From IMG/VR virus record IMGVR_UViG_3300047661_000097: 20,000 nucleotides of DNA. One strand, written 5' to 3'. This document shows, one piece after another, positions 1,670-19,841 of the stretch; position 1 is the stretch's first letter; each line of letters begins with the position of its first letter. The stretch is from an uncultured virus (IMG/VR IMGVR_UViG_3300047661_000097) (Duplodnaviria > Heunggongvirae > Uroviricota > Caudoviricetes). The notes under the pieces were generated by a model. The model was not told the origin of the DNA. It saw only the letters and a list, made by a program, of their open reading frames with translations, and did no database searches. The position numbers and the translations under genes were made by a program.

Positions 1670-1875
1670 AGCGGAAAACGCTCCCGCCGAGCCATAACCA
1701 ACAAATCGGCCGCCTCAATCGCTTTTGTGGCTTCCGCACTGCTTGCACTACCATCCAAAAGGCATTCCACGCATTCTGACCAAAACTCGCGGTCGCATTC
1801 CATACGATAAGATTGTTCGTTTAACAACCTCATTTTCTCGCGTCTTTCAATCTTGTCTTGTTGGTTTTGGCTCAT
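1666..1875 (-). CDS. Hypothetical protein
   Basis: GAGG SD; stop overlaps the start of the next gene. Confidence 0.65.
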   Translation of the reverse strand: MSQNQQDKIERREKMRLLNEQSYRMECDREFWSECVECLLDGSASSAEATKAIEAADLLVMARRERFPL

Positions 1876-2251
1876 CTTTACGCACCTCGTGGTAATTAAT
1901 CCTTACGCTGCCTTTGCGTATATTGCACATGGCATGCGCCGCGCCATTGTACGGCTCCATCTTTCCTGTCTCACGGTTTAAACGCTCAATGCGATCATCC
2001 CGGTGCCCGGCGTCATAACCTCGACCATCTTGGTGCTCAAAAACCGCATCCGCAAGCCGCAACTGACCAGGGCAGTGTTTGATATAGCCTTCCAAACAAC
2101 AACGGCGATTCTGGCGCTCCCACATCACCCTAAGACGCCGCATATATTCGTCACGGCCTTCTTTAGTCAAAAGATTGCAAATTTCCCGTCCATTGGTCAA
2201 AACTCGAATTGTAGGCTTCAATTTGTTTTTCACGGCGCACCAGCCAACCAA
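1847..2251 (-). CDS. HNH endonuclease-like protein (start may be GTG at 2233)
   Basis: RCC...C...FEH...GG-like loop...NGAAHAMCNIRKGS: HNH-type pattern. Confidence 0.7.
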   Translation of the reverse strand: MVGWCAVKNKLKPTIRVLTNGREICNLLTKEGRDEYMRRLRVMWERQNRRCCLEGYIKHCPGQLRLADAVFEHQDGRGYDAGHRDDRIERLNRETGKMEPYNGAAHAMCNIRKGSVRINYHEVRKDEPKPTRQD

Positions 2252-3413: not shown

Positions 3414-3650
3414 TTACTTTGTCCGCCATACTCTCAGTCCCCAATCGTCGTACTCTGCCATAAACTCCTTGTTGTTTTTCAATCCGTAGCGATAAACAGA
3501 AACGCTAGAAACGGGCGGAAATCCACTGTTACCTACATTCTGGATATAAATTGAATCGTTCGGTTCCATGTGCGCCAACTCAGGCACAATTTCCTCTGCT
3601 CCCGGAGTGTCGGTTGCAAGCAAAAAATTCTTTTCGACCCGTATCGTCAT
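3414..3650 (-). CDS. Hypothetical protein
   Basis: ATGA overlap with MTase stop; C-terminal GLRVWR motif. Confidence 0.7.
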   Translation of the reverse strand: MTIRVEKNFLLATDTPGAEEIVPELAHMEPNDSIYIQNVGNSGFPPVSSVSVYRYGLKNNKEFMAEYDDWGLRVWRTK

Positions 3651-5359
3651 ACGCTCTCCATTTGGTTGAATAGCGGCGCATCAGCTTCTATCCGTAGCTG
3701 TGCAATCTTTACGTAATCAGGATTCATCTCAATACCAATAAAATTGAATCCTTCACGTATAGCCGCAATTCCTGTGCTTCCCGAGCCCATAAACAAATCA
3801 AGAACTGTGCCTTTTGGCGGCGTCACTAATCGGCAAAGATAAGCCATTAGTGCTATAGGTTTGACCGTTGGATGGAAATTCTGCGCACTGCGGTCCGTTC
3901 CATCGGACTGAAAAGTCCCCGGCGATTGCGTTCCAGCCGACCACAGCAACGGTTTCTTGTCCATCGCTTCGCATCCGCGGTTACGCTCTTCGCGGCTTGC
4001 TTTCGCACAATAAATCAAACTATGTTGAAAGTCCTTCTCCCCATGTTCCAAGTTCTTCGGCATGATGCTGAATATGGCATTTACGACAGAGCCGTTCTGT
4101 CTGGAGAGGCTGGTCGTAATCTTCGTGATGCCGGTCTGCACACGGAGCACCACACTTTGTACATGGCCGATTTTTTGGGTCAAATCTTCGGGCGGCTGCT
4201 CGAGCCAGGACTTTCTTCCTAAACTCTGGATCGTCTCTGTAACGCTTGTTGCGATCTGCCTTAATTCGTTCAGCGTTACGTTCGTAAAAGGTTCCGGGAA
4301 GACGACCTTTAAGCGCAGCTCCACGGGGAGTGCCTCGCTGACTGCATGATCGAGAACAGTAGACGCGAGTTTGCTTGGCAGGCAAGAAAAGCCGTCCACA
4401 GAATGCACAAGGTTTGAGAGACCGCTTTGCTCCAGCCATTCTCTGTCCTCCAGTGAACAGGTTTTAAAGAACCGCGCTGCAGAGCCCTTATCGAGACGGG
4501 GTTCCCAACCATAGCCATTGGTCCCAAATTTCCCGTATACATTTTGCTGGGTGCGTTGGCCATCGTCGCTGGCACGTAGCTGCCCCGGCGCATCTGGAAA
4601 TGCTGCCAACACTTCGTCGCTGCCATCATGAATAACATTAGCTGGCCAGCGACCCAATTCCGGCGTGTTATACGGTGTACTACTCTCTCCAACAAACGAT
4701 TTAGCGCCGCTGGTTCGCCCGTAATTGTGGTGTGGAAGTTCTCCAGAAATTCGGCACGCATCGATATTCAACGCACCGGTTCTATACTCCAAAACATTGG
4801 CCGCCACGGTGCCCACCAGCGGCTTGCGAGCAACAACAATCGGCTCGTGCGCCGGTTTCAACGCTGTGCCAAATCCTTGCCACTGCTGCGCGGCATCGGT
4901 CGCTGGAGCCGTAATTGGTTGCGGCGGATAATCATAGCTAACCTTTCTCGTTTCGCTATAACGTTGCGTTGCTTTTCCACGCTTATAACGCGCAGGGGCC
5001 ACAATCGCCCGTTCCACCTTTGCGGCCTTATCGATCGCTTTTGATACGTCGACCGATTTAGGAAATCCGCTGCCATAGATCCACATAATCTGATCGCGGA
5101 TCTCGAATCCCGCATCTTCAACGGCACACGCCAGCCGGTGATACGTGCGGCTTCCGCCAAAGGCCAGCAGATAACCACCAGGCTTTAACACTCGCAATGC
5201 TTGCTTCCACATCAACACGGAATAAGAAATTCCAGTTGCATCCCACTTTTTCCCCATAAAACCAAGTTCATATGGAGGATCGGTAACGATGGAATCCACC
5301 GTCGCATCGGCCAGCGTTTGCAATTGCTCCATCACATCGCCCTCCAAAATTCGGTACAT
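3647..5359 (-). CDS. DNA N6-adenine/N4-cytosine methyltransferase (beta class) with an in-frame insertion
   Basis: TDPPY near the N-terminus, HPTVKP and DLFMGSGSTG near the C-terminus; likely start MYRILEGD at 5359 (GGAG SD), ORF track start 5389. Confidence 0.92.
   Translation of the reverse strand: MYRILEGDVMEQLQTLADATVDSIVTDPPYELGFMGKKWDATGISYSVLMWKQALRVLKPGGYLLAFGGSRTYHRLACAVEDAGFEIRDQIMWIYGSGFPKSVDVSKAIDKAAKVERAIVAPARYKRGKATQRYSETRKVSYDYPPQPITAPATDAAQQWQGFGTALKPAHEPIVVARKPLVGTVAANVLEYRTGALNIDACRISGELPHHNYGRTSGAKSFVGESSTPYNTPELGRWPANVIHDGSDEVLAAFPDAPGQLRASDDGQRTQQNVYGKFGTNGYGWEPRLDKGSAARFFKTCSLEDREWLEQSGLSNLVHSVDGFSCLPSKLASTVLDHAVSEALPVELRLKVVFPEPFTNVTLNELRQIATSVTETIQSLGRKSWLEQPPEDLTQKIGHVQSVVLRVQTGITKITTSLSRQNGSVVNAIFSIMPKNLEHGEKDFQHSLIYCAKASREERNRGCEAMDKKPLLWSAGTQSPGTFQSDGTDRSAQNFHPTVKPIALMAYLCRLVTPPKGTVLDLFMGSGSTGIAAIREGFNFIGIEMNPDYVKIAQLRIEADAPLFNQMESV
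4020..4439 (-). CDS. Zn-finger/HNH endonuclease-like protein nested in the MTase gene (alternate frame)
   Basis: CAFC...YCSRSC; CTKC...DRHHEDYDQP...LCRKCHIQHH; own GGAGGA SD at 4446-4451. Confidence 0.8.
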   Translation of the reverse strand: MAGAKRSLKPCAFCGRLFLPAKQTRVYCSRSCSQRGTPRGAALKGRLPGTFYERNAERIKADRNKRYRDDPEFRKKVLARAAARRFDPKNRPCTKCGAPCADRHHEDYDQPLQTERLCRKCHIQHHAEELGTWGEGLST

Positions 5360-5372
5360 TTGCTCTCCGCCG

Positions 5373-5603
5373 TTATCTGCTAAAAGCACACTTATTTTTT
5401 CTTAAAGATGCTTGCGCCATTCTGTCTTCAGCGTCCCACCGCAATGTATCCAATTCGCAAATACGGCTTAGCGCAATATTCCGGTCGAGCAAGTGATCGT
5501 CGGCGGCCTTGGCCAACGCCCGCCGAAAGAGTTTTAGCTCTAGCGGATTCATTGAAACCTTTACCCGCACTTCCGTCATATCTTTACCTTTCTTGCGCAT
5601 CAA
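5373..5603 (-). CDS. Hypothetical protein
   Basis: Overlaps the primase stop; operon context. Confidence 0.6.
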   Translation of the reverse strand: MMRKKGKDMTEVRVKVSMNPLELKLFRRALAKAADDHLLDRNIALSRICELDTLRWDAEDRMAQASLRKNKCAFSR

Positions 5604-7303
5604 TCAACCCAACTGGGTTTAGAAACGCCATGGATATTCGGATCAAAAGGCATTACATTTTCCAAAGGAGCTAACTTTAAATTCCCGCCCTCGTGCTGAA
5701 TAATGAATGAAATTGGCTCGCAAGACTCGGCCGCCTTGGTTTCAAACTCCGCCCTGCGCCGTAGCTTTTGTTCACCAGGGTTTTCTACCGTTAGCCCTAT
5801 GCTCCATTCCGTCCAACCGTAGATGGCGCTGGCGCCGCGGATTCGTGTAAAAAATCTTCCCGTCGCGTTTTCCTTGCTTACGTGGTGCACAATACCAATC
5901 GAGCATCCAGCCTCTTGCCCAATCTGGCCGATCTTCTTTACCACCTGCGCCATCTCGCCATTGTTGTTCTCATCGCGGTTATGTATGCGATTCAGCACAT
6001 CAAAAACTGCAAATTCTATTTGCCGGTCTTTTAAATCCAAAATCATGTTGGCAAGCTGCTCGTCATCGTCAACGTCAAAATCTCCAAGTTGCTCACGCGT
6101 GTTGATCCACAGCCACCCGCTAACGTCTTCTCGTAAGCCCTTGCCACGCAATAACGCTTGCACCCGCACCTTCGTTAGCACTGGCGAATCTTCGCGGCTA
6201 ATGTAGGCAGTGCGCACGCGGCGCGGCACCCTTCTTCCCAACCACGGCTCGCCCGATGCTAATGAAATCAACAGATCAAGCGCCGCCAGCGATTTTCCCG
6301 TCTTGGGCTCCGCGGCAATCAAGCCGTTACCGCCGACTTGAATAACGCCGTCCACCAGCCACTCAATCTCCGCATTGGCTGATTGCGCCCATTCCACCGC
6401 ATCTACAAGCCAGTTTTCTCGCTCGGTTGATGCCGTCCAGATCCTGGACTCGCGTATGCGCTTTTTCAGCTCCTCTGGTGAATGATTTTCAAGAAAATCG
6501 CTAACATCGCTTTTTTCCGGCAACTCGGAGAAGTCGACCATGCGCACGGCATAGGCAAACTTGGTAATCGCCGATGCCGCCGTCTCGGCATAAATCCGGC
6601 CAGGCTCGTCGTTATCGGCAAAGATGATGACTTGCTTGCCGGTAAAATACGGCGCGTAAGAATCCAGCCATTTTGGCGAATGTCCCTTTTGCCAAGCCCC
6701 GTCATGCGTTGTCGTCGCCGCAATCGAAAGCGCGTTTTCGGTGAACAAATTGGCATCAATTAGACTTTGGCAGTCTTTTTCGCCCTCACAATAAAACGCC
6801 ACATTGGCCTTGATTAAATCGGGCAGGTTGTACAGAATACGCCGCGTGCGGCTCCCATCCTTGCGATCGATTCCCAGCTTCCACTCGCCATTTTCAGGGT
6901 GAAACACGCGAAAAGTCTTCTCGCCAATTTCAGGCTCATAGCGCCGCTTTTGGAAAAGCGTCAGCCCGTTCTCGTCGCGGTAATCGTAAATGGCCGCCGG
7001 CACCCCTAAATTACTTTCTTCCTCGTACCAGCTGGCCGGCGTCGCGCCGGTAATCTTCGCGACATTCGCTTCGGCTTGCTCCAGGGAGCACGAAGAGAAT
7101 CTCGCTTCAAACTGAAAAAGATTGCCCTTCGCGCCGCAGGCATGGCAGTTAAATCCGCCGTTGCCGTCAAGGAAAAGCGTGCACGATGGATTCTTTTCGT
7201 CATGGAAGGCGCAGCGCACGGCAACTTTTTCGCGCGCCGGAATCCTTTGCCCAGGATGCCGGTGCTCGAAGTATTGCCGAATTTGCTCGAAGCTAAGCTG
7301 CAT
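5600..7303 (-). CDS. Primase-helicase (CHC2 Zn finger + TOPRIM + RecA-like/AAA_25 helicase)
   Basis: CAFH...CHAC; EGEKD; DND; AEPKTGKS Walker A; VHH...RGAS. Confidence 0.92.
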   Translation of the reverse strand: MQLSFEQIRQYFEHRHPGQRIPAREKVAVRCAFHDEKNPSCTLFLDGNGGFNCHACGAKGNLFQFEARFSSCSLEQAEANVAKITGATPASWYEEESNLGVPAAIYDYRDENGLTLFQKRRYEPEIGEKTFRVFHPENGEWKLGIDRKDGSRTRRILYNLPDLIKANVAFYCEGEKDCQSLIDANLFTENALSIAATTTHDGAWQKGHSPKWLDSYAPYFTGKQVIIFADNDEPGRIYAETAASAITKFAYAVRMVDFSELPEKSDVSDFLENHSPEELKKRIRESRIWTASTERENWLVDAVEWAQSANAEIEWLVDGVIQVGGNGLIAAEPKTGKSLAALDLLISLASGEPWLGRRVPRRVRTAYISREDSPVLTKVRVQALLRGKGLREDVSGWLWINTREQLGDFDVDDDEQLANMILDLKDRQIEFAVFDVLNRIHNRDENNNGEMAQVVKKIGQIGQEAGCSIGIVHHVSKENATGRFFTRIRGASAIYGWTEWSIGLTVENPGEQKLRRRAEFETKAAESCEPISFIIQHEGGNLKLAPLENVMPFDPNIHGVSKPSWVD

Positions 7304-8153
7304 TGCTTCCCTCGTAGGCCCGCATGCCGTTTTTTAATCCCCAGAGCTTTGAAGACATCCATCTGCCTTCGCCAAAAAACTTTTCAGGGCTCATCGGGGG
7401 CGCGCGCAGCTTTTCCCTTTTGGCGCAATCGCAATACTCTTTCCAGGCCACAATCATGCTGTCGCGAACGCCATCGAGATCCCCAGGATGTTCCTTGAGC
7501 GCGAATTTGGCTTGCTCGAAAAGCTGGTCCCTAGCCCATCGCGTGGTGGTTCCAATCGAATCAACCACGGCAGTTGCAATCATGTGTGCCTCGTCGTTTT
7601 CCGTAGAAGAAGCCGCGCGCAGCGCAGGGAGTGGTTCTGCGATATTCCGGAGATCCTCCGGAATTCCCCCCCCTGTTCCCTGTTCCCTGTTCCCTGTTCC
7701 CTGTTCCTGACGGAAATTCTCCGGCGGCTCTCCAGAAATTTCCGGTTGTTCCCCGGAATTTTCCAGGGGATTTCCAGAACTTTTTAGAGATTTTCTGGAG
7801 ATTTCCAGAGAATTTTTCCATAAGATATTCAATTTGCTTATTTTGCTTGGCGTGGGGTGGCTGATTCTTTGATGATTTGCAAAATTTACGATGCGACCAA
7901 ATTGCTTTTCTTTGTGAATACCGATCTCGACATAGCCAATGCTCACTAATTCGTTGAGCAGTTTTTTTATGTTTTTAAAATCTTTACGCAATGGGCACGT
8001 TCCAGCTCGCACTAAAGCCGGATTTGCGTTGAAAAATCCTTCGTCATCGGCATAGCAAAGCAACGCTTCCGCTAATAAATGCGCTGATGCAGACACAGAC
8101 GAAAGCCCTTCGTTTGAATTAAACTCGGGCTTGATTGACCTTATCCTTCCCAT
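7293..8153 (-). CDS. Phage replication initiator/replisome organiser
   Basis: MGRIRSIKPEF...ADDEG N-terminus typical of phage replication proteins; internal repeat tract; directly upstream of primase-helicase. Confidence 0.75.
   Translation of the reverse strand: MGRIRSIKPEFNSNEGLSSVSASAHLLAEALLCYADDEGFFNANPALVRAGTCPLRKDFKNIKKLLNELVSIGYVEIGIHKEKQFGRIVNFANHQRISHPTPSKISKLNILWKNSLEISRKSLKSSGNPLENSGEQPEISGEPPENFRQEQGTGNREQGTGGGIPEDLRNIAEPLPALRAASSTENDEAHMIATAVVDSIGTTTRWARDQLFEQAKFALKEHPGDLDGVRDSMIVAWKEYCDCAKREKLRAPPMSPEKFFGEGRWMSSKLWGLKNGMRAYEGSNAA
7671..7820. repeat. (CCCTGTT)x5 at 7671-7705 plus ~10-11-bp-spaced TTTCCRG-like repeats: probable iteron/ori region
   Basis: Repeats seen directly; position inside the initiator gene is analogous to lambda ori in O. 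Confidence 0.6.
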
Positions 8154-8171
8154 GCAAATGCCCTTATTTCT

Positions 8172-8819
8172 TTACGCTTTTAATTTTGAGGTAGGCTTCG
8201 ATAAATGCTCGCGCTGCGGGCACACAGATTGCGTCGCCGTACAGACGAAGCCGTCCAACACGGGCGGTGGCTCCTGTGGCGAGTGGAAACTCGATAGTTC
8301 TTCGGAAGCCACCCGCTTCAAAATCCATCCAGAGGCGGTCTTGAACTTTTTCAGTAAGGGATCGCCATAGCGTTTCAACCGGGACAGATGGGTGCAACAC
8401 AAGCCCTTGCGCTCCACTGGTTTTGAGCAATAGGCGCAATGCTTCAACCGTAGCGGTGTCCCCTCGTACCTCGGCGAGTGCAAGAGACGATGGCAGGAGA
8501 CGCACAAACTCTTCAAATTCTCGGGCGCGTTGTTCATCGGATCTTTGTCTTTGTGGTGTACGTGCAATTTGCAACTTGTCTTCCCACACCGCTCGCAAGT
8601 TTTCTTTACCGCCTTGCCCGATTGCCGCCGGCTGTTTTTGGCGTTGAGCACCTTGATCGTTCCTTCGTAATCCAGTGCCATGCACTTCCGGTTGCAATAA
8701 TGTCGCTGGAGAAAACTCGTTATGTTTTCCAACACGCCGTTCATCCAGCGCTTGCGATGAAGGAGTTCGCCGCAATAACGGCAATTTTTGATCGGGTCGG
8801 ATTTGGGCTTCGGAGGCAT
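8172..8819 (-). CDS. HNH endonuclease with Zn fingers nested in the C5 MTase gene
   Basis: CRYC...YCNRKC; CERC...LHVHHKDKDPMNNAPENLKSLCVSCHRLLH; starts immediately after the beta-chain stop (TAAATG). Confidence 0.85.
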   Translation of the reverse strand: MPPKPKSDPIKNCRYCGELLHRKRWMNGVLENITSFLQRHYCNRKCMALDYEGTIKVLNAKNSRRQSGKAVKKTCERCGKTSCKLHVHHKDKDPMNNAPENLKSLCVSCHRLLHSPRYEGTPLRLKHCAYCSKPVERKGLCCTHLSRLKRYGDPLLKKFKTASGWILKRVASEELSSFHSPQEPPPVLDGFVCTATQSVCPQREHLSKPTSKLKA

Positions 8820-9350
8820 TTACTTTTTCTTTTTCCGCTTCAGCGTTGCTGCTGCCCGCATCGCAAACAGATCCCATTGGTGCGGTATGCTCATCAACCA
8901 TCCAGACATACTTGGGTTCAACTGGCCGGAATTTACCGTCCCTGCATCCGATCCAGTCAGCATCTCGCCAGAAGCCGTTAAGCGGACCGGGCCGCTGGGA
9001 CACTCCGGAATTGTCCGCGCCATCTGATCCAATCCCATTTCGTCGATCCGGTTGCCCGACCGCGAACGAAAGCTGTCTACCGCTGGTGTCGGCCAGCCCG
9101 CTAGCAGTTTCACTTGGTTCTGTAGCTGTTCGCCCTTTTTGCCGCCGCCACGCTCCGCAAAACTTTTCTGGTTGGCTGTCCGGTAATCCCGTTCGGCCGG
9201 TGTCGCCCACGCCGCCAAGTTCGCTTGGCTGTGCAGTGTATCCGGCTTGCCCCGGTGCGCTCCCGCGCATTCCGAGTCTTCCGCTTTCGGCGTCGGCCAC
9301 GAAGTAAAGTCGCTGCCGGATGTGTGGCGCGCCGACGCTGCACGCTCCAA
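8820..9350 (-). CDS. C5 MTase small (beta) chain in an alternate frame, M.EcoHK31I-like
   Basis: Repeated WPTP/WATP segments and GQLNPSMSGWLMSIP (motif IX-like), which is missing from the alpha frame. Confidence 0.7.
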   Translation of the reverse strand: MERAASARHTSGSDFTSWPTPKAEDSECAGAHRGKPDTLHSQANLAAWATPAERDYRTANQKSFAERGGGKKGEQLQNQVKLLAGWPTPAVDSFRSRSGNRIDEMGLDQMARTIPECPSGPVRLTASGEMLTGSDAGTVNSGQLNPSMSGWLMSIPHQWDLFAMRAAATLKRKKKK

Positions 9351-9817
9351 ATACGAATCTTCCCAACGGCGTACGCTTCCGCTTCCAAGTCAGATTGAAC
9401 AAGGTCGAGCCAGCCGTATCCAATCGCCGCACGCACTTGCTCTCCAAAAATGACTGCAGGGTGGCACTGGCGGATGAGTCGCATCCAATCAGGCCAGAGG
9501 TGACGAGAGTCTGCAAACCCTTGTCCTTTGCCCGCGGCGGAAAAACTTGGGCATGGGCAACTTCCTGTCCACACTGGCCGTTCGTCTGGCCATCCGGCTT
9601 GTCGCAGCGCGAGTGACCAAAATCCGCCTCCAGCGAAGAAATGCGCTTGGGTATATCCCACAAGGTCTGCTGCTCGTACTTCGGTGATACTTCTGGCATC
9701 GACATCTCCAGCCGCAATGGCACCAGCTTTAATAGCTTCTCGAATAATTTCGGCCTTAAGCGGGTCGCATTCGTTGTAATAGGCAGACACAACAATCCAA
9801 TGCTTCAATTGGCAGGG

Positions 9818-10269: not shown

Positions 10270-11505
10270 TTATGCGACGATCTTCAATCTATGATCGCCT
10301 TGCTCTCTCAACTCATCTAGGGTATCAGCCCACTGCTGCATCATAGCCGTCCTATCTTCTAAATACAAGGCAAAGTTATAAGCCGCAGAAACCTTATCTT
10401 GCTTAACATGCGCCAGCTGCAATTCGATCTGTTCATGGTCAAAACCATGCTCGTGCAACCATGTCGACGCGATCGAGCGCCAGCCGTGGCCGGTCATGCG
10501 CCCCTTATACCCCATACAGTAGAGCGCATTCAAAACCGTGCTGTGGCACAGCGTTCCATTACCATGATGAGAGGCTTCAGGAAAAAGTCGGCCACTCTCG
10601 CCTGTTAGTTCATAAAGGCGCTTCAGCAACGCAACGGTCTGTGTAGCCAGCGGCACAATATGCGGCCGATTCATCTTCATGCGTTCGGGCGGAATGCGCC
10701 ATTGCTTTTGTTCCCAATCAATCTCCGACCAAAGGCCGCCGATTAATTCGCTTGTACGCACAAAGGTTAGGCTCAGTAGTTCCATGGCAATCCGCGTCAG
10801 CGCGTTGCCGTTGTAATCCCGCATATCGCAAAGCAATGCGGGAATCTCGGCAATCGGCAAATGCGCAAAGTGCTTCACCGTAGCTTTGCTTAAAATGCGA
10901 TCCGGCCGAATGCCGGCGGCGGGGTTCATTGGGATCAATCCGCGGTCGCAACCAAACTCATAAATTTGATTAATCGTTTGCAGCATACGACGGGCAACAT
11001 CGCGCGCGCCGTGCGCATCAATAGATTGGATTAATGCCACCAGTTCGATGCGGCTAATTTTCATCGGCGGCTTTTTACCAATAACCCCTAATACGTAGTT
11101 CATAAGCCGCGCTTCCATTTGCGTTGCATAACGAGGTGCCCTGTTGGCGTTCCACCAGTCAAGCCATTGCCGCGCCAGCCACTCAAACGTAAATAATGCC
11201 GTTTTTTTCTCTTCTACCAGTTTTATTTTCTGCTGTTCCTTTGTCTCTTTCCGCACGGCCATGGGATCAGTACCTTGCGCTAAAAGCAAACGAACATCTG
11301 CATGCCGCTTTCTTGCTTCCAACAGCGAAACGTCAGGGAATTTCCCTAAAGCCATCTGTTTCTGTTTGCCGTCAAACCAATACTTCCAACGCCACAGTTT
11401 GCCGCCGGCGGGCATTACTAGCAGATGCAAGCCCTGGCGATCAGGAATACGATACGGTTTCGTACGTGGCTTTGCTTTTTCGCATTTTAAATTTGTAAGT
11501 TCCAT
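10270..11505 (-). CDS. int: P4-like (IntA/IntS family) tyrosine integrase
   Basis: N-terminal arm-binding domain; catalytic R (FVRTSE), K, HGWR, LAH and Y (AAYNF) intact. Confidence 0.95.
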   Translation of the reverse strand: MELTNLKCEKAKPRTKPYRIPDRQGLHLLVMPAGGKLWRWKYWFDGKQKQMALGKFPDVSLLEARKRHADVRLLLAQGTDPMAVRKETKEQQKIKLVEEKKTALFTFEWLARQWLDWWNANRAPRYATQMEARLMNYVLGVIGKKPPMKISRIELVALIQSIDAHGARDVARRMLQTINQIYEFGCDRGLIPMNPAAGIRPDRILSKATVKHFAHLPIAEIPALLCDMRDYNGNALTRIAMELLSLTFVRTSELIGGLWSEIDWEQKQWRIPPERMKMNRPHIVPLATQTVALLKRLYELTGESGRLFPEASHHGNGTLCHSTVLNALYCMGYKGRMTGHGWRSIASTWLHEHGFDHEQIELQLAHVKQDKVSAAYNFALYLEDRTAMMQQWADTLDELREQGDHRLKIVA

Positions 11506-11523: not shown

Positions 11524-12051
11524 TTAAGTGCTGCGTAAATTTGATGGTTTGCCAAACTCGTAAATTCGTTGAATCATCTGCAAATCCAGTTGGTCAGCTG
11601 AATTCGCTAAAAGCGGAGAATCCGTTGTGCTATTAAAGATTTCTGGAAAGCGCAAAGCAATTTCATTAAGCCACCACGCAAACCAGAGTTTTGCGCATCT
11701 GCTAAATAATTGCTTTCGCACCTGCGTGGCATTCTGTTGTAGCGCTATTGTTTTTCGTTGTAGCGCCGTCGTCTTTCGTTGTCGCTTTATTTGCTTCCGC
11801 GTTGCCATCGGATCGGTTCCGGCAGCAAGTTCCGCACGTGCTTTTGCATGCAGCGCTCGGGCCTGTAGTAATGAAACCTTAGGGTATTTTCCGAACGCCA
11901 TTTGTTTTTGCTTGCCGTCAAACCAATACTTCCAGCGCCACAATCTGCTGCCACGTGGAGTAACCAGTAAATGCAGACCGTTCCCATCAGACAGACGGTA
12001 AGGTCGCGCCGCTGGGCAAGCATTTTCGCATTTCAGATCAGTTAATTTCAT
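11524..12051 (-). CDS. Integrase arm-DNA-binding domain protein lacking the catalytic domain
   Basis: First ~85 aa closely parallel the integrase N-terminus (LWRWKYWFDGKQKQMA identical); no catalytic motifs. Confidence 0.85.
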   Translation of the reverse strand: MKLTDLKCENACPAARPYRLSDGNGLHLLVTPRGSRLWRWKYWFDGKQKQMAFGKYPKVSLLQARALHAKARAELAAGTDPMATRKQIKRQRKTTALQRKTIALQQNATQVRKQLFSRCAKLWFAWWLNEIALRFPEIFNSTTDSPLLANSADQLDLQMIQRIYEFGKPSNLRST

Positions 12052-12075: not shown

Positions 12076-13166
12076 GTTGCATCTGTCCGATGCACTGCTA
12101 CTTTGTTGCTACTCCATTGCTTGCCGTTAACAATTGCTGTAAAGAGTTGCATCTGTCCGATGCACTACATGCTCGTCGCAACAACCAGCCGTATGTTTCT
12201 TCGTCGATGTTAGTTTGTTGCATCTGTTCGATGCACTCAAAATCTGTTGTTACCCCTCCAGATTCCAATTGCCTGATCCTCTGCTGTTGCATCTATCCGA
12301 TGCACTACAAACTTTGTTACTAATCGCCGCCCTGGCACTGGGCGTGTAAGCGGAGTTGTTGCATCTGCTCGATGCACTCAAAATCTGTGGCTACTTTGAT
12401 CGCCTAAACTCATGACTCACACTACCGAGTTGCATCTGTCCGATGCACTACAACTTCTTTGCTGCCCTGCGGTATGCGACTATTCGCTGAGCACTTCGAT
12501 TGTTGCATCTATTCGATGCACTACAGCTCCATTGCTACCCCATTGCTTGCGGTTGTCGCTTGCCGTTGCCAATAGTTGCATCTGTCCGATGCACTACAAC
12601 TTCTTTGCAACGACAACTGTTGTTGTTCACAACGTGGACACTGGTGTGTTGCATCTGTTCGATGCACTACAACTTCGTTGCAACTTGCGTTGGGAGTAGT
12701 CAATTCCTGCATAGTCCAAGTTGCATCTGTCCGATGCACTACAAATTCGTTGCAACGACTAACTGCGGAAAACGCGTCATGAGGCGTAGTTGCATCTGCT
12801 CGATGCACTGCACGCTCGTCGCAACTGCAAGGGACCGGGGCTACTTGCCCAGGTTGACACGTTGCATCTGTTCGATGCACTGCAAATTCGTTGCTGCAGC
12901 GGCCTATCATAGGAGGACGTTGCATCTATTCGATGCACAACAACTTCGCTGCAACGCTTCACATCGCCGAATACGTTTATGCCGGACGGTTGCATCTATT
13001 CGATGCACTACAACTTCGTTGCAGCGAATTCAACAAATTGTTCGCACTGGAGAAACTCGGTTGCATCTATTCGATGCACTGTACGTTTGTCGCAACGCCA
13101 GCAGCCATGTATATTTTTGCAGCTGATCAGTTACATCTGTTCGATGTACTGCACGATTTGGCAAAG
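12076..13166. CRISPR. CRISPR-like array 1: 16 degenerate 37-bp repeats, 15 spacers (32-36 bp, one of 21 bp)
   Basis: Repeats start at 12076, 12146, 12217, 12286, 12358, 12429, 12502, 12575, 12648, 12720, 12789, 12861, 12919, 12989, 13060, 13130; consensus GTTGCATCTRYYCGATGCACTACAACTTCGTTGCWAC. Confidence 0.93.
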
Positions 13167-13211
13167 AACGTTGAGGCATTGCGGCCGCCCCATGCCCGTA
13201 TGGACACTTTT

Positions 13212-13242
13212 ATTATACCTAAAAAATGCCCCAAAAAAACAA
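13212..13242 (-). promoter_or_regulatory. Possible sigma70 promoter reading into array 1 and the integrase genes
   Basis: Perfect TATAAT on the minus strand at 13212-13217; weak TTGTTT -35 with 19-bp spacing. Confidence 0.45.
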
Positions 13243-13560
13243 TTTGTTTGTTGCATTCCGAAAAAGCCATGGGAAAAATGTGTCACAAATATAGCACCAA
13301 AATTGCCCCCCTTGTAGAAAAATGTCTTTACGTCTCCAGGTCGAGGTTGAACAGGTAAAAGGGGGGCATATTTCCATTAAGTCCTTTATTTGTAATGAAA
13401 GAAAGGCATGGAATTGGTCGAGAAAGGTCAAGAAAAGTTTTGAATTGGAGTGGGTGAAAACATGGAATTGGCTCCTGAACGAGGATAGATTTCATTTTTG
13501 TTTTCAATAGCTTACAACGACAAAAATCAAATATAGCACCAAATATGGCACCAAAGACAC
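13220..13560. other. Probable attP region
   Basis: AT-rich; direct repeats AAATATRGCACCAAA at 13287, 13529, 13541 (arm-type-like); IHF-like TTTCAATAGCTTA near 13502; upstream of int. Confidence 0.55.
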
Positions 13561-13589
13561 AAATGGCCGATCAATGGTTCGATCGGCCA
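13553..13589 (-). terminator. Intrinsic terminator downstream of array 2 on the minus strand
   Basis: TGGCCGATC-N8-GATCGGCCA (13564-13589) followed on the minus strand by TTTGTGTCTTT. Confidence 0.6.
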
Positions 13590-13613
13590 CAAAATCTAAC
13601 TACTTGCTGCAGT

Positions 13614-14042
13614 GTTGCATCTGTACGATGCACTCTCGGGACGTTCAACGTAGTTGCATCTGCTCGATGCACTCTTGCAGTTTTCCGAGGTTGCATCTGC
13701 TCGATGCACTTCATGCTCGTCACAACGGTCGATACAGGCGGCTTTGTTGCAGACATGCGCCAAGTTGCATCTGTGCGGTGCACTCTCGGGCCGTTGCCAA
13801 TAGTTGCATCTGTCCGATGCACTCAAAGCCCGTCGCTACTTCAAAGACGTCTGTTGCAATTGAGTCGTCCTCGTTGCACCTGCTCGATGCACTGCACGCT
13901 CGTTGCAACGGCGCTTATCGTTACTAAAGCGGAGAAATGATCTGCGTTGCATCTGTTTGATGCACTAAAAACTCGTTGCTACACGAAGGATTTGTCCGAT
14001 TAACAGCAAGTGCTCTGTGTTGCATCTGCTCGATGCACTGCA
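13614..14042. CRISPR. CRISPR-like array 2: 8 repeats of the same family, three collapsed units
   Basis: Repeats at 13614, 13653, 13690, 13764, 13803, 13873, 13946, 14019 (last truncated). Confidence 0.88.
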
Positions 14043-19306: not shown

Positions 19307-19841
19307 GTTGCATCTATTCGATGCACTACAATTTCGTTGCTGCCAGTCCGCACTTGCTTTCGGCCAGAGATCATCTCGTTGCATCTGTTCGATGCACTAT
19401 AACTTCGTTGAAGCTTGAAAAAGAGCGGAACATCTTTGCACAAACGATGTTGCATCTGCTCGATGCACTGCAACTTCGTTGCTAACTACCCTCTACCGCA
19501 AGTCAGGCTGATGTTCACCGGTTGCATCTATTCGATGCACTCCAACTTCGTTGCAGCGCGGCGGAGAAGCGGCAGAACTATCTTCTGATGCAGGTTGCAT
19601 CTATTCGATGCACTGCAAATTCGTTGATACAATCGTTATCTGGAACCGTGGTACTGGTTCTTCAGTTGCATCTGCTCGATGCACTCCAAACCCGTTGCTA
19701 CATAAATTCCATCCCTTACATCACCCCCCAAGATGTTGCATCTGTTCGATGCACTACAACTTCGTTGCTACCCTGATAAAAAAACTAAAAAGACACGCGC
19801 TATAGTTGCATCTGTTCGATGTACTACAAATTTGTTGCTAC
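19307..19841. CRISPR. CRISPR-like array 3: 8 repeats, 7 spacers (33-36 bp)
   Basis: Repeats at 19307, 19378, 19449, 19521, 19594, 19665, 19735, 19805. Confidence 0.92.

Follow-up and report, generated by a model that had tools for sequence, protein, structure and literature searches.

A hidden zinc-finger/HNH gene in an open-frame insert of a phage beta-class DNA methylase: a probable ShiLan-type homing element read through as a tolerated loop

The closest described system to the element studied here is the ShiLan domain (Arsenault et al. 2025; PMC11855218), an HNH gene hidden out of frame in a phage methylase gene, which was characterized by computation only and for which a tolerated loop in the host protein together with leaderless initiation of the nuclease was proposed. 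Here we describe an element of the same layout in a 20,000-nt stretch of DNA (hereafter the window) from an uncultured virus of the Caudoviricetes (IMG/VR record IMGVR_UViG_3300047661_000097), where a zinc-finger/HNH open reading frame (ORF) is nested within a beta-class amino (N6A/N4C) DNA methyltransferase (methylase) gene, at a site that we denote ARFF/YCAKA. The methylase of mycobacteriophage ShiLan, gp65 (PMC11855218; PMC9957025), belongs to the same family, matches the window methylase at 37-56% in several blocks and has the motifs DPPY, GSGFPKS and SRFF. Both inserts are in frame and stop-free and carry their HNH in frame +2, both are free of intein or intron signs and patchily distributed, and each has an end similar to its flank and is predicted to form a helical hairpin that loops out. 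The ShiLan site, however, follows TALKP about 130 residues upstream, and gp65 has a 4-residue loop at the ARFF/YCAKA site. Besides, the two HNH proteins are unrelated (BLASTP aligns just a 38-aa zinc knuckle, E 0.011), the window insert comprises 151 codons against 202 in ShiLan, and the HNH starts here at an ATG with a Shine-Dalgarno (SD) motif or a -10 box, whereas no ribosome-binding site was found for ShiLan (PMC11855218). At least 102 distinct inserts from non-actinobacterial settings are available here, compared with about ten phages carrying the ShiLan domain. Judged by sequence, the window element is a member of the ShiLan architecture but distinct from the ShiLan element itself, with a new site and a new, widespread nuclease lineage. 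In a search of mainly open-access literature, which returned the two ShiLan papers, a genome announcement and an intein preprint, no paper on this site or this nested HNH lineage was found.

Other known systems resemble the element in part. Pacc40 gp60 (PMC11855218) also keeps its host frame open around an endonuclease ORF of some 160 aa that is out of frame (+2), but in the helicase part of a helicase-methylase fusion, and its HNH has no significant likeness to ours. In Aeh1 (Crona et al., PMC3045599), the HNH gene mobE likewise lies in a coding region, that of nrdA, the host enzyme works without splicing and the inserted peptide is structural; there, however, nrdA is cut into two proteins, whereas the window host frame is continuous and overlaps the nuclease gene. 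The bypass cassette of T4 gene 60 (bioRxiv 2022.08.31.505936) is another non-splicing rescue of a host gene from an insert linked to a homing endonuclease; it measures about 50 nt and requires a stop or hungry codon past the take-off codon, a stem-loop and matched codons, none of which is seen in the window element.

The methylase ORF of the window (5389..3647; 580 aa counted from a GTG, with an ATG at 5356 as the likely start) matches N6_N4_Mtase in Pfam (E 8.9e-32) and phrog_67 in PHROG (E 1e-73), its structural model matches CcrM, M.BceJIV, M.MboII and M.RsrI (E 1e-10 to 3e-7), and its motif IV (DPPY), variable region and S-adenosylmethionine (SAM) motif follow one another in the beta-class order. 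The insert, bounded by the end of ARFF at 4466 and the start of YCAKAS at 4012, occupies exactly 4465-4013; its host-frame translation starts with Lys and ends with Leu-Ile, while the HNH ORF starts 26 nt inside the insert and is followed by the last 7 nt of it. These data bear out an earlier note on this DNA, which had recognized the host as an adenine/N4C methylase, had its ARFF-YCAKAS motif split by 151 stop-free codons (4013-4465, correct to the base) and had described a complete zinc-finger/HNH protein with its own SD in another frame, namely the 139-aa ORF in frame +2 with GGAGG at 4451-4447. Judged singly, the open frame of the window copy is moderately unusual, with P = 0.016 when the HNH codons are redrawn from window codon usage and P = 0.59 when the HNH's own codons are permuted. 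A host-frame stop requires an HNH codon for Leu, Ile, Val or Met that ends in TA or TG and is followed by a purine. A protein poor in these residues easily keeps this frame open, so that a single open frame can only be suggestive, and it is the family data that decide.

Searches with the HNH alone yielded 160 loci for examination, to which a metagenome scan contributed the best 80 of 144. Close relatives were defined by an HNH identity of 45% or more across 75 aa or longer, and although they were found through HNH likeness alone, all 155 of them are flanked by methylase sequence and lie at the same ARFF/YCAKA site. The other five loci hold only remotely similar HNHs that stand alone and have 2-4 stops in the corresponding frame, and 11 of 12 further distant HNH matches likewise carry stops in it. 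Both junctions lie in one frame at 142 of the 155 loci; another 12 are clipped by the end of a contig, and L112 alone has lost the phase. The 142 in-frame loci represent 102 distinct inserts of 136-243 codons, and in every one of these the host frame is free of stops and the HNH is in frame +2; the phase is constant in 102/103 distinct inserts despite 26 different lengths of the 5' linker. The sole named bacterial isolate genome with the element is that of Paraburkholderia phenazinium LMG 2247 (L188). A search of GenBank phages with the nested HNH gave weak partial matches only (5 records), and no cultured phage with the element was found.

Empty alleles were drawn from 80 loci collected via the N-terminal part of the methylase (one being the window's own allele); picked by likeness to the window methylase, they are not a random sample. 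Both catalytic motifs were present in 63 distinct ones. In 53 of these ARFF and YCAKA adjoin without a spacer, whereas 10 accept HNH-free loops of 4-55 aa, namely short loops (4-17 aa) in 6 and tandem duplications (40-55 aa) in 4. The nearest methylases (L027, L028, L029 and L035, the last from a syntenic phage) all lack the HNH. Absent from most homologues and without a PHROG match when translated in the host frame, the insert does not behave as a genuine methylase domain. HNH-free loops of 9-17 aa are seen at the site in L088, L040, L086 and L090; the L088 loop, which is similar to both termini of complete inserts and clusters with an invaded allele, may be a remnant of a deletion. In L027, L029, L062 and L075 a natural tandem duplication (40-55 aa) at the same site closes with a second GSxARFF, showing that the site both tolerates and generates duplications.

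Selection on the host frame was assessed in 81 divergent representatives (less than 25% shared 8-mers). Relatedness inflates the counts that follow, but silent sites have lost most of their similarity (agreement 0.38, random level 0.26). Not a single host-frame stop was observed, compared with 182.6 expected from synonymous redraws, while the third frame holds 785 stops against 653 expected. The HNH genes lack the codon contexts that would make a stop, whereas the methylase exons use them often (e.g., Leu-TG before A, 0 vs 160). In the 5' linkers, a part without HNH coding function, the 1075 host-frame codons include no stop, compared with 38 and 95 in the other frames. In addition, an Arg-Phe pair recurs at the 3' end of the insert, with Arg at -3 in 74/81 and Phe at -2 in 63/81; the Arg is written with varied codons, and in all 27 cases of overlap between the HNH stop and the -3 host codon the stop is TAG (host frame Arg 25, Ser 2), whereas other layouts use all three stops. 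Thus, the methylase frame is shown statistically to be selected to stay open and in phase through the insert, and so to be translated.

Over 29 independent pairs, the ratio of nonsynonymous to synonymous change (pN/pS) comes to 0.31 for the HNH frame, 1.11 for the host frame and 1.40 for the third one. The HNH frame is therefore under purifying selection, and the host-frame value implies a loosely constrained, loop-like peptide. Position-specific bias at silent sites was found in 62/79 HNH columns compared with 20/198 exon columns; at HNH codon 62, for instance, the third base is T in 92% across differing HNH residues, giving host-frame Leu or Ile. Host-frame amphipathicity over HNH codons 54-76 exceeds that of stop-free nulls in 59/80 sequences (mean z 0.72), while the same test was null for the HNH core and for the preceding segment (mean z -0.13 and 0.15). 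In an AlphaFold model built with 85 alignment rows, the methylase core reaches a pLDDT (predicted score of the local distance difference test) above 90 and YCAKAS 84-92, while the insert stays mainly below 50; such a model is compatible with a looped-out insert and is no proof of it.

The nested protein matches the endonuclease family phrog_2340 (E 1e-7); the Pfam search did not name it, the best match being NinG (E 0.004). Its model (pLDDT 91) consists of a zinc knuckle, two long helices and a core of two strands followed by one helix, and the predicted protein combines a general-base His, metal-ligand His residues, a Cys4 zinc site and a beta-beta-alpha core, as in His-Me nucleases. D102, H104, H105, Y108, P111, C118, H122 and H126 are present in 80/80 HNH relatives, while the canonical Asn position is acidic in most (E 51/80, D 11/80) and Gln in the window copy. 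The HNH profile aligns weakly (E 0.1) with C298/C301/H310/C329/C332/H333 of Cas5-HNH (PDB 8YB6), placing H105 on H310 and H122 on H333; H310 and D324 of Cas5-HNH are reported to be essential (PMC11794572). With Cas5-HNH and with the HNH proteins of phage GVE2 and T5 SciA, the nested HNH shares the Cys/His spacing of the His-Me core and, in most relatives, an acidic residue in place of the canonical Asn, in weak matches only (E 0.1; Z 3.0-3.8), but it differs from them in its short core loop, N-terminal zinc knuckle and long helices. GVE2 HNH is the best structural match (Z 3.8), and T5 SciA gives Z 3.0 with a root mean square deviation of 2.3 over 59 residues.

The HNH appears to be equipped for separate expression. 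A start codon precedes the first zinc knuckle in 102/102 inserts, and an ATG is available in 95. In 37 of the 81 representatives an SD-like motif is present and TAnnnT is lacking. Of the 44 SD-less elements, 27 carry TAnnnT at a distance of 5-8 nt ahead of the start, compared with 0/37 in the SD class (background 1.6%; Fisher p 3e-10), and 10 of these 27 have TTGCTT or TTGATT 17 nt upstream. A transcription start placed at the ATG is the arrangement of leaderless mRNA. The spacing of the -10 boxes would put the transcription start at the ATG, and we therefore regard the boxes of the SD-less elements as placed for a leaderless HNH mRNA and as parts of a candidate sigma70-like promoter. A promoter scan of the minus strand at the window element, which belongs to the SD class, found nothing.

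The descent of the element was examined on a tree of methylase exons with the inserts removed (119 rows, 56 invaded and 63 empty alleles). Invaded and empty alleles interleave in a patchy distribution; the invaded/empty label needs 16 changes, of which 7 are forced by starred branches, and the window allele falls inside starred groups of otherwise empty alleles. The direction of gain versus loss cannot be read from these change counts. The window HNH is closest to those of L002 and L003 (64% identity), whose methylases are only 55-57% alike to the window's in conserved columns, compared with 72% for its nearest empty relative.

Several observations weigh against a mobile nuclease in a methylase that stays functional. 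Invaded alleles are clustered (16 changes vs about 40 when labels are shuffled), and HNH and methylase identities correlate (Spearman 0.47), so that much of the inheritance is vertical and some empty alleles are perhaps losses. L112 carries a one-base phase shift in its 5' linker, and two of the 87 judgeable invaded methylases (L124 and L126) are frameshifted elsewhere in the gene. No overall purifying selection on the host-frame peptide was detected in the pN/pS pairs, and the host-frame helix signal is modest and open to shared ancestry. The window copy itself departs from the consensus, having Arg in place of Trp116 (W in 77/80 relatives) and ending in S-L-I where relatives have R-F-x; it may be a decaying or weakened member. 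Finally, the HNH model hits several HNH nucleases among solved structures with Z 2.5-3.8 only, and Foldseek returned nothing with E < 0.001 for it; these weak structural matches are, though, no evidence for a different fold.

Among the alternatives, the invaded methylase might be impaired or dead, its frame kept open for polarity or translational coupling while the HNH rides in a dispensable gene. Phage orphan methylases are indeed stated to be dispensable (PMC11855218), the host-frame pN/pS agrees with such a reading, and a second, C5 methylase of the window is frameshifted with its own insert open nonetheless. The condition of the invaded genes argues the other way. Leaving aside 15 distinct inserts in ORFs clipped by contig ends, a single ORF still joins the catalytic motif to the SAM motif in 80 of the 87 judgeable alleles, 77 of them recognized by pattern and 3 by eye; two of the latter, L113 and L146, have an altered catalytic motif (DSPY or DCPY), which again suits an impaired enzyme. 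Five others are broken into two ORFs elsewhere, in L136, L245 and L198 by another HNH-like gene, so that plain frameshifts remain in just the two alleles named above. DPPY, HPTxKP and GxG are invariant or nearly so in 52 invaded and 33 empty alleles, and the rebuilding of the 3' Arg-Phe through varied codons and the choice of HNH stop speaks against a dead enzyme; we consider this explanation unlikely. In the five split alleles (L136, L245, L114, L198 and L127) the methylase forms two overlapping ORFs divided at other sites, in L114 without a gene between them.

A domesticated pair of HNH and methylase, forming a compact restriction-modification-like or phage-exclusion module, would explain why the HNH family is confined to this methylase (155/155), has its own expression signals and shows distances that correlate with those of the methylase. 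Most homologous methylases nevertheless lack the HNH (53/63 have no spacer), the gene always sits at one codon junction inside the methylase as a homing element does, and L237 tolerates a nonsense codon in the HNH with the host frame still open, which makes domestication highly improbable. Removal or skipping of the insert at the RNA level, by a small intron of a new type or by bypassing from the Phe codon to its duplicate, is very unlikely, even though the duplicated R-F could form a take-off/landing pair (Phe at both ends in 63/81) and three short RNA-library contigs that cover the gene leave room for a minor spliced form. Freedom from stops over some 150 codons is not needed in a segment that is skipped; there is no stop past the take-off codon, and the window copy has Leu at the would-be landing Phe. 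Moreover, the Arg before the landing Phe would itself be skipped and yet is kept as an amino acid, with identical codons in 17/74 only. No Rfam match, no element-specific pairing of the insert ends (p 0.40, no better than between the ends of different elements) and a terminal G in only 26/81 were found. One RNA-library contig (X19, 182 nt, 4429-4610, no differences) spans the 5' junction unspliced and another lies inside the insert; this is weak support, as DNA carry-over is uncontrolled. No joint skipping the insert was seen in the RNA-library contigs, the three runs of which (X18-X20) hold 6-12% of the words, so that neither its absence nor stretches without cover prove anything. Least credible of all to us is a self-excising or self-cleaving host-frame peptide that would leave a spliced or two-chain methylase. 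The 3' exon starts with Tyr-Cys, with Cys one residue from the junction in 56/81, and two-piece methylases exist where other HNH genes split the gene (L136, L245, L198). The first residue, however, is Lys, Phe, Ala or Tyr, His-Asn/Gln within the last 12 residues occurs in 0/81, the host frame holds no conserved catalytic set, and the model has no intein fold.

Particular mechanisms were also rejected one by one: a group I or II intron (no Rfam match at the gathering score, 26 + 7 nt outside the ORF, last base G in 26/81), T4 gene 60-type bypass (no stop, terminal codons identical in 2/81, a window copy without a Phe to land on), an intein (His-Asn/Gln in 0/81, first residue Lys in 37/81, +1 position Tyr, no Hint fold in the model) and, for the window copy, recombinational excision through terminal repeats, as no direct or inverted DNA repeats of at least 14 nt exist at 3900-4600.

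We thus consider it probable that the window carries a ShiLan-type hidden HNH homing element whose host is read through a tolerated loop. Inserts of 136-243 codons with a zinc-finger/HNH gene in +2 occupy the single ARFF/YCAKA site of phage beta-class methylase genes, and the statistics of the open, in-phase frame indicate that ribosomes translate through them. The methylase would then be one long protein, active without splicing, with the insert looping out between two R-F copies, in the variable region that separates the catalytic part from the SAM-binding part. The HNH would be made separately, from an internal SD in the window copy and 37/81 representatives or, in many others, from an internal sigma70-like promoter giving a leaderless mRNA, as far as sequence features can tell. 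Presumably the empty allele in a co-infecting phage or prophage is nicked or cut by the HNH and receives a copy of the insert during repair, and the acquired insert then splits the HNH recognition site. The earlier note had proposed a mobile HNH without intron or intein, sparing its host through dual coding, and the stop, phase and tree data of the family speak for it: there is indeed no room for a group I intron core (26 + 7 nt outside the HNH ORF, no Rfam match), and intein ends are missing from the window insert and its relatives alike. Of the two outcomes that it offered for the insert, the tolerated loop is favoured, while bypassing finds no support, for want of a take-off stop and of a matched landing codon in the window copy and in view of the host-frame residues selected inside the insert. 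The note overlooked the published ShiLan precedent and the second such element of the window.

A bolder version of this proposal, which we put forward tentatively and would sooner doubt than accept in full, is that the element brings its own cure for the damage that it does and so replaces introns and inteins by a design free of splicing: R-F is rebuilt at its 3' end (partly by the HNH stop codon), HNH silent sites are tuned so that an amphipathic helical hairpin joins the junctions, and in many copies a sigma70 promoter supplies a leaderless mRNA, making three codes in one DNA, a design that would have arisen repeatedly and twice in this genome, in different frames and methylase classes. The coordinates of the window features are given in Table 1.

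Table 1. Features of the methylase loci in the window, with the evidence for each (pLDDT values are from the structural models).
Feature	Position	Strand	Evidence or remark
Beta-class amino (N6A/N4C) DNA methyltransferase ORF	3647..5389	-	open across the insert
Catalytic motif IV, DPPY	5270..5281	-	sequence; invariant across 85 aligned methylases
ARFF, 5' junction motif	4466..4477	-	53/63 empty alleles read ARFF/YCAKA without spacer
Insertion element, 453 nt / 151 codons, methylase frame stop-free	4013..4465	-	missing from the nearest methylases L027, L028, L029, L035
SD motif GGAGG of the nested HNH gene	4447..4451	-	7 nt ahead of the HNH ATG; window copy of SD class
Nested zinc-finger/HNH ORF, 139 aa, frame +2 relative to the methylase	4020..4439	-	phrog_2340; model pLDDT 91; pN/pS 0.31
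N-terminal zinc knuckle, C11/C14/C28/C32	4344..4409	-	invariant in 71 sequences; weakly like FCS and YacG fingers
His-Me (HNH-type) core, C93, C96, H104, H105, C118, C121, H122, H126	4062..4163	-	conservation and Cas5-HNH alignment
Host-frame peptide, predicted amphipathic helix (model residues 362-384)	4205..4273	-	pLDDT about 58-69; bias at HNH silent sites
Second predicted helix of the host-frame peptide	4331-4378	-	pLDDT about 58-69
YCAKAS, 3' junction motif	3995..4012	-	preceded by R-F-x in relatives, S-L-I in the window copy
HPTVKP and SAM-binding motif DLFMGSG, C-terminal part of the methylase	3779..3874	-	pLDDT >90
Second, independent insertion, about 206 extra codons after RPVEP in the C5 cytosine methylase, host frame open	8290..8913	-	15-aa spacer in 30 distinct homologues
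Second nested HNH ORF, 215 aa, frame +1	8172..8819	-	Pfam HNH_3 E 4e-4; phrog_7545 E 1e-7

The second hidden HNH of the window lies in its C5 methylase gene (9808..8164), and its ATG directly follows the stop of an overlapping ORF (9350..8820). The host frame of this insert was open in only 0/5000 and 1/5000 null draws. In a survey of 74 loci, many of which do not match the pattern and 30 distinct ones of which have the plain spacer, Komagataeibacter phage phiKX1, L295 and L298 were also found invaded at the site, and their host frames stay open. A one-base frameshift near 9356 (minus strand) breaks the window C5 methylase together with its conserved overlapping ORF, while the syntenic relative L259 has an intact C5 gene and no insert. 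An unannotated related HNH lies in frame +1 inside the open C5 methylase of Staphylococcus phage CUB-EPI_14, gp45 (L255:2501-2953), and this cultured phage may offer an experimental model for the layout.

The window as a whole is phage or prophage DNA that codes mainly on the minus strand, including recA, ERF, a primase-helicase, integrases and the two methylases. Two CRISPR-like arrays, at 12076-14040 and 19307-19840+, are built from a degenerate, semi-palindromic repeat (31 copies, about 37 nt each) that alternates with unique spacers of 32-37 nt at a period of about 71; the first array is interrupted at about 13170-13600. No Rfam match to these arrays, no cas gene in the window and no spacer match to the window or the fetched loci was seen. 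Adjoining the first array, an integrase-like ORF follows a shorter ORF with a similar N-terminus (10270-11505 and 11524-12051, minus strand; annotated by eye). A 134-aa ORF at 1847-2251 (minus strand) has a Cys/His spacing suggestive of another nuclease and no Pfam or PHROG match, and a short low-complexity repeat at 7670-7707, in the replication-initiator-like ORF 8153..7293, attracts many unrelated contigs in all four runs.

The ShiLan paper (2025) had about ten closely related copies and argued from missing splicing signs only, and the present family supplies population-level evidence for a translated and selected host frame. Three features would go beyond the published layout, namely the selected 3' R-F duplication, a modest host-frame bias towards an amphipathic helix and the leaderless-type -10 boxes, and the SD and -10-box classes suggest an answer, from sequence, to that paper's question of how the hidden nuclease is expressed. 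The family also defines an empty target site for a test of cleavage and homing. Hidden nucleases of this kind are invisible to gene callers, and what appears as a 150-residue 'domain' of the methylase is another gene.

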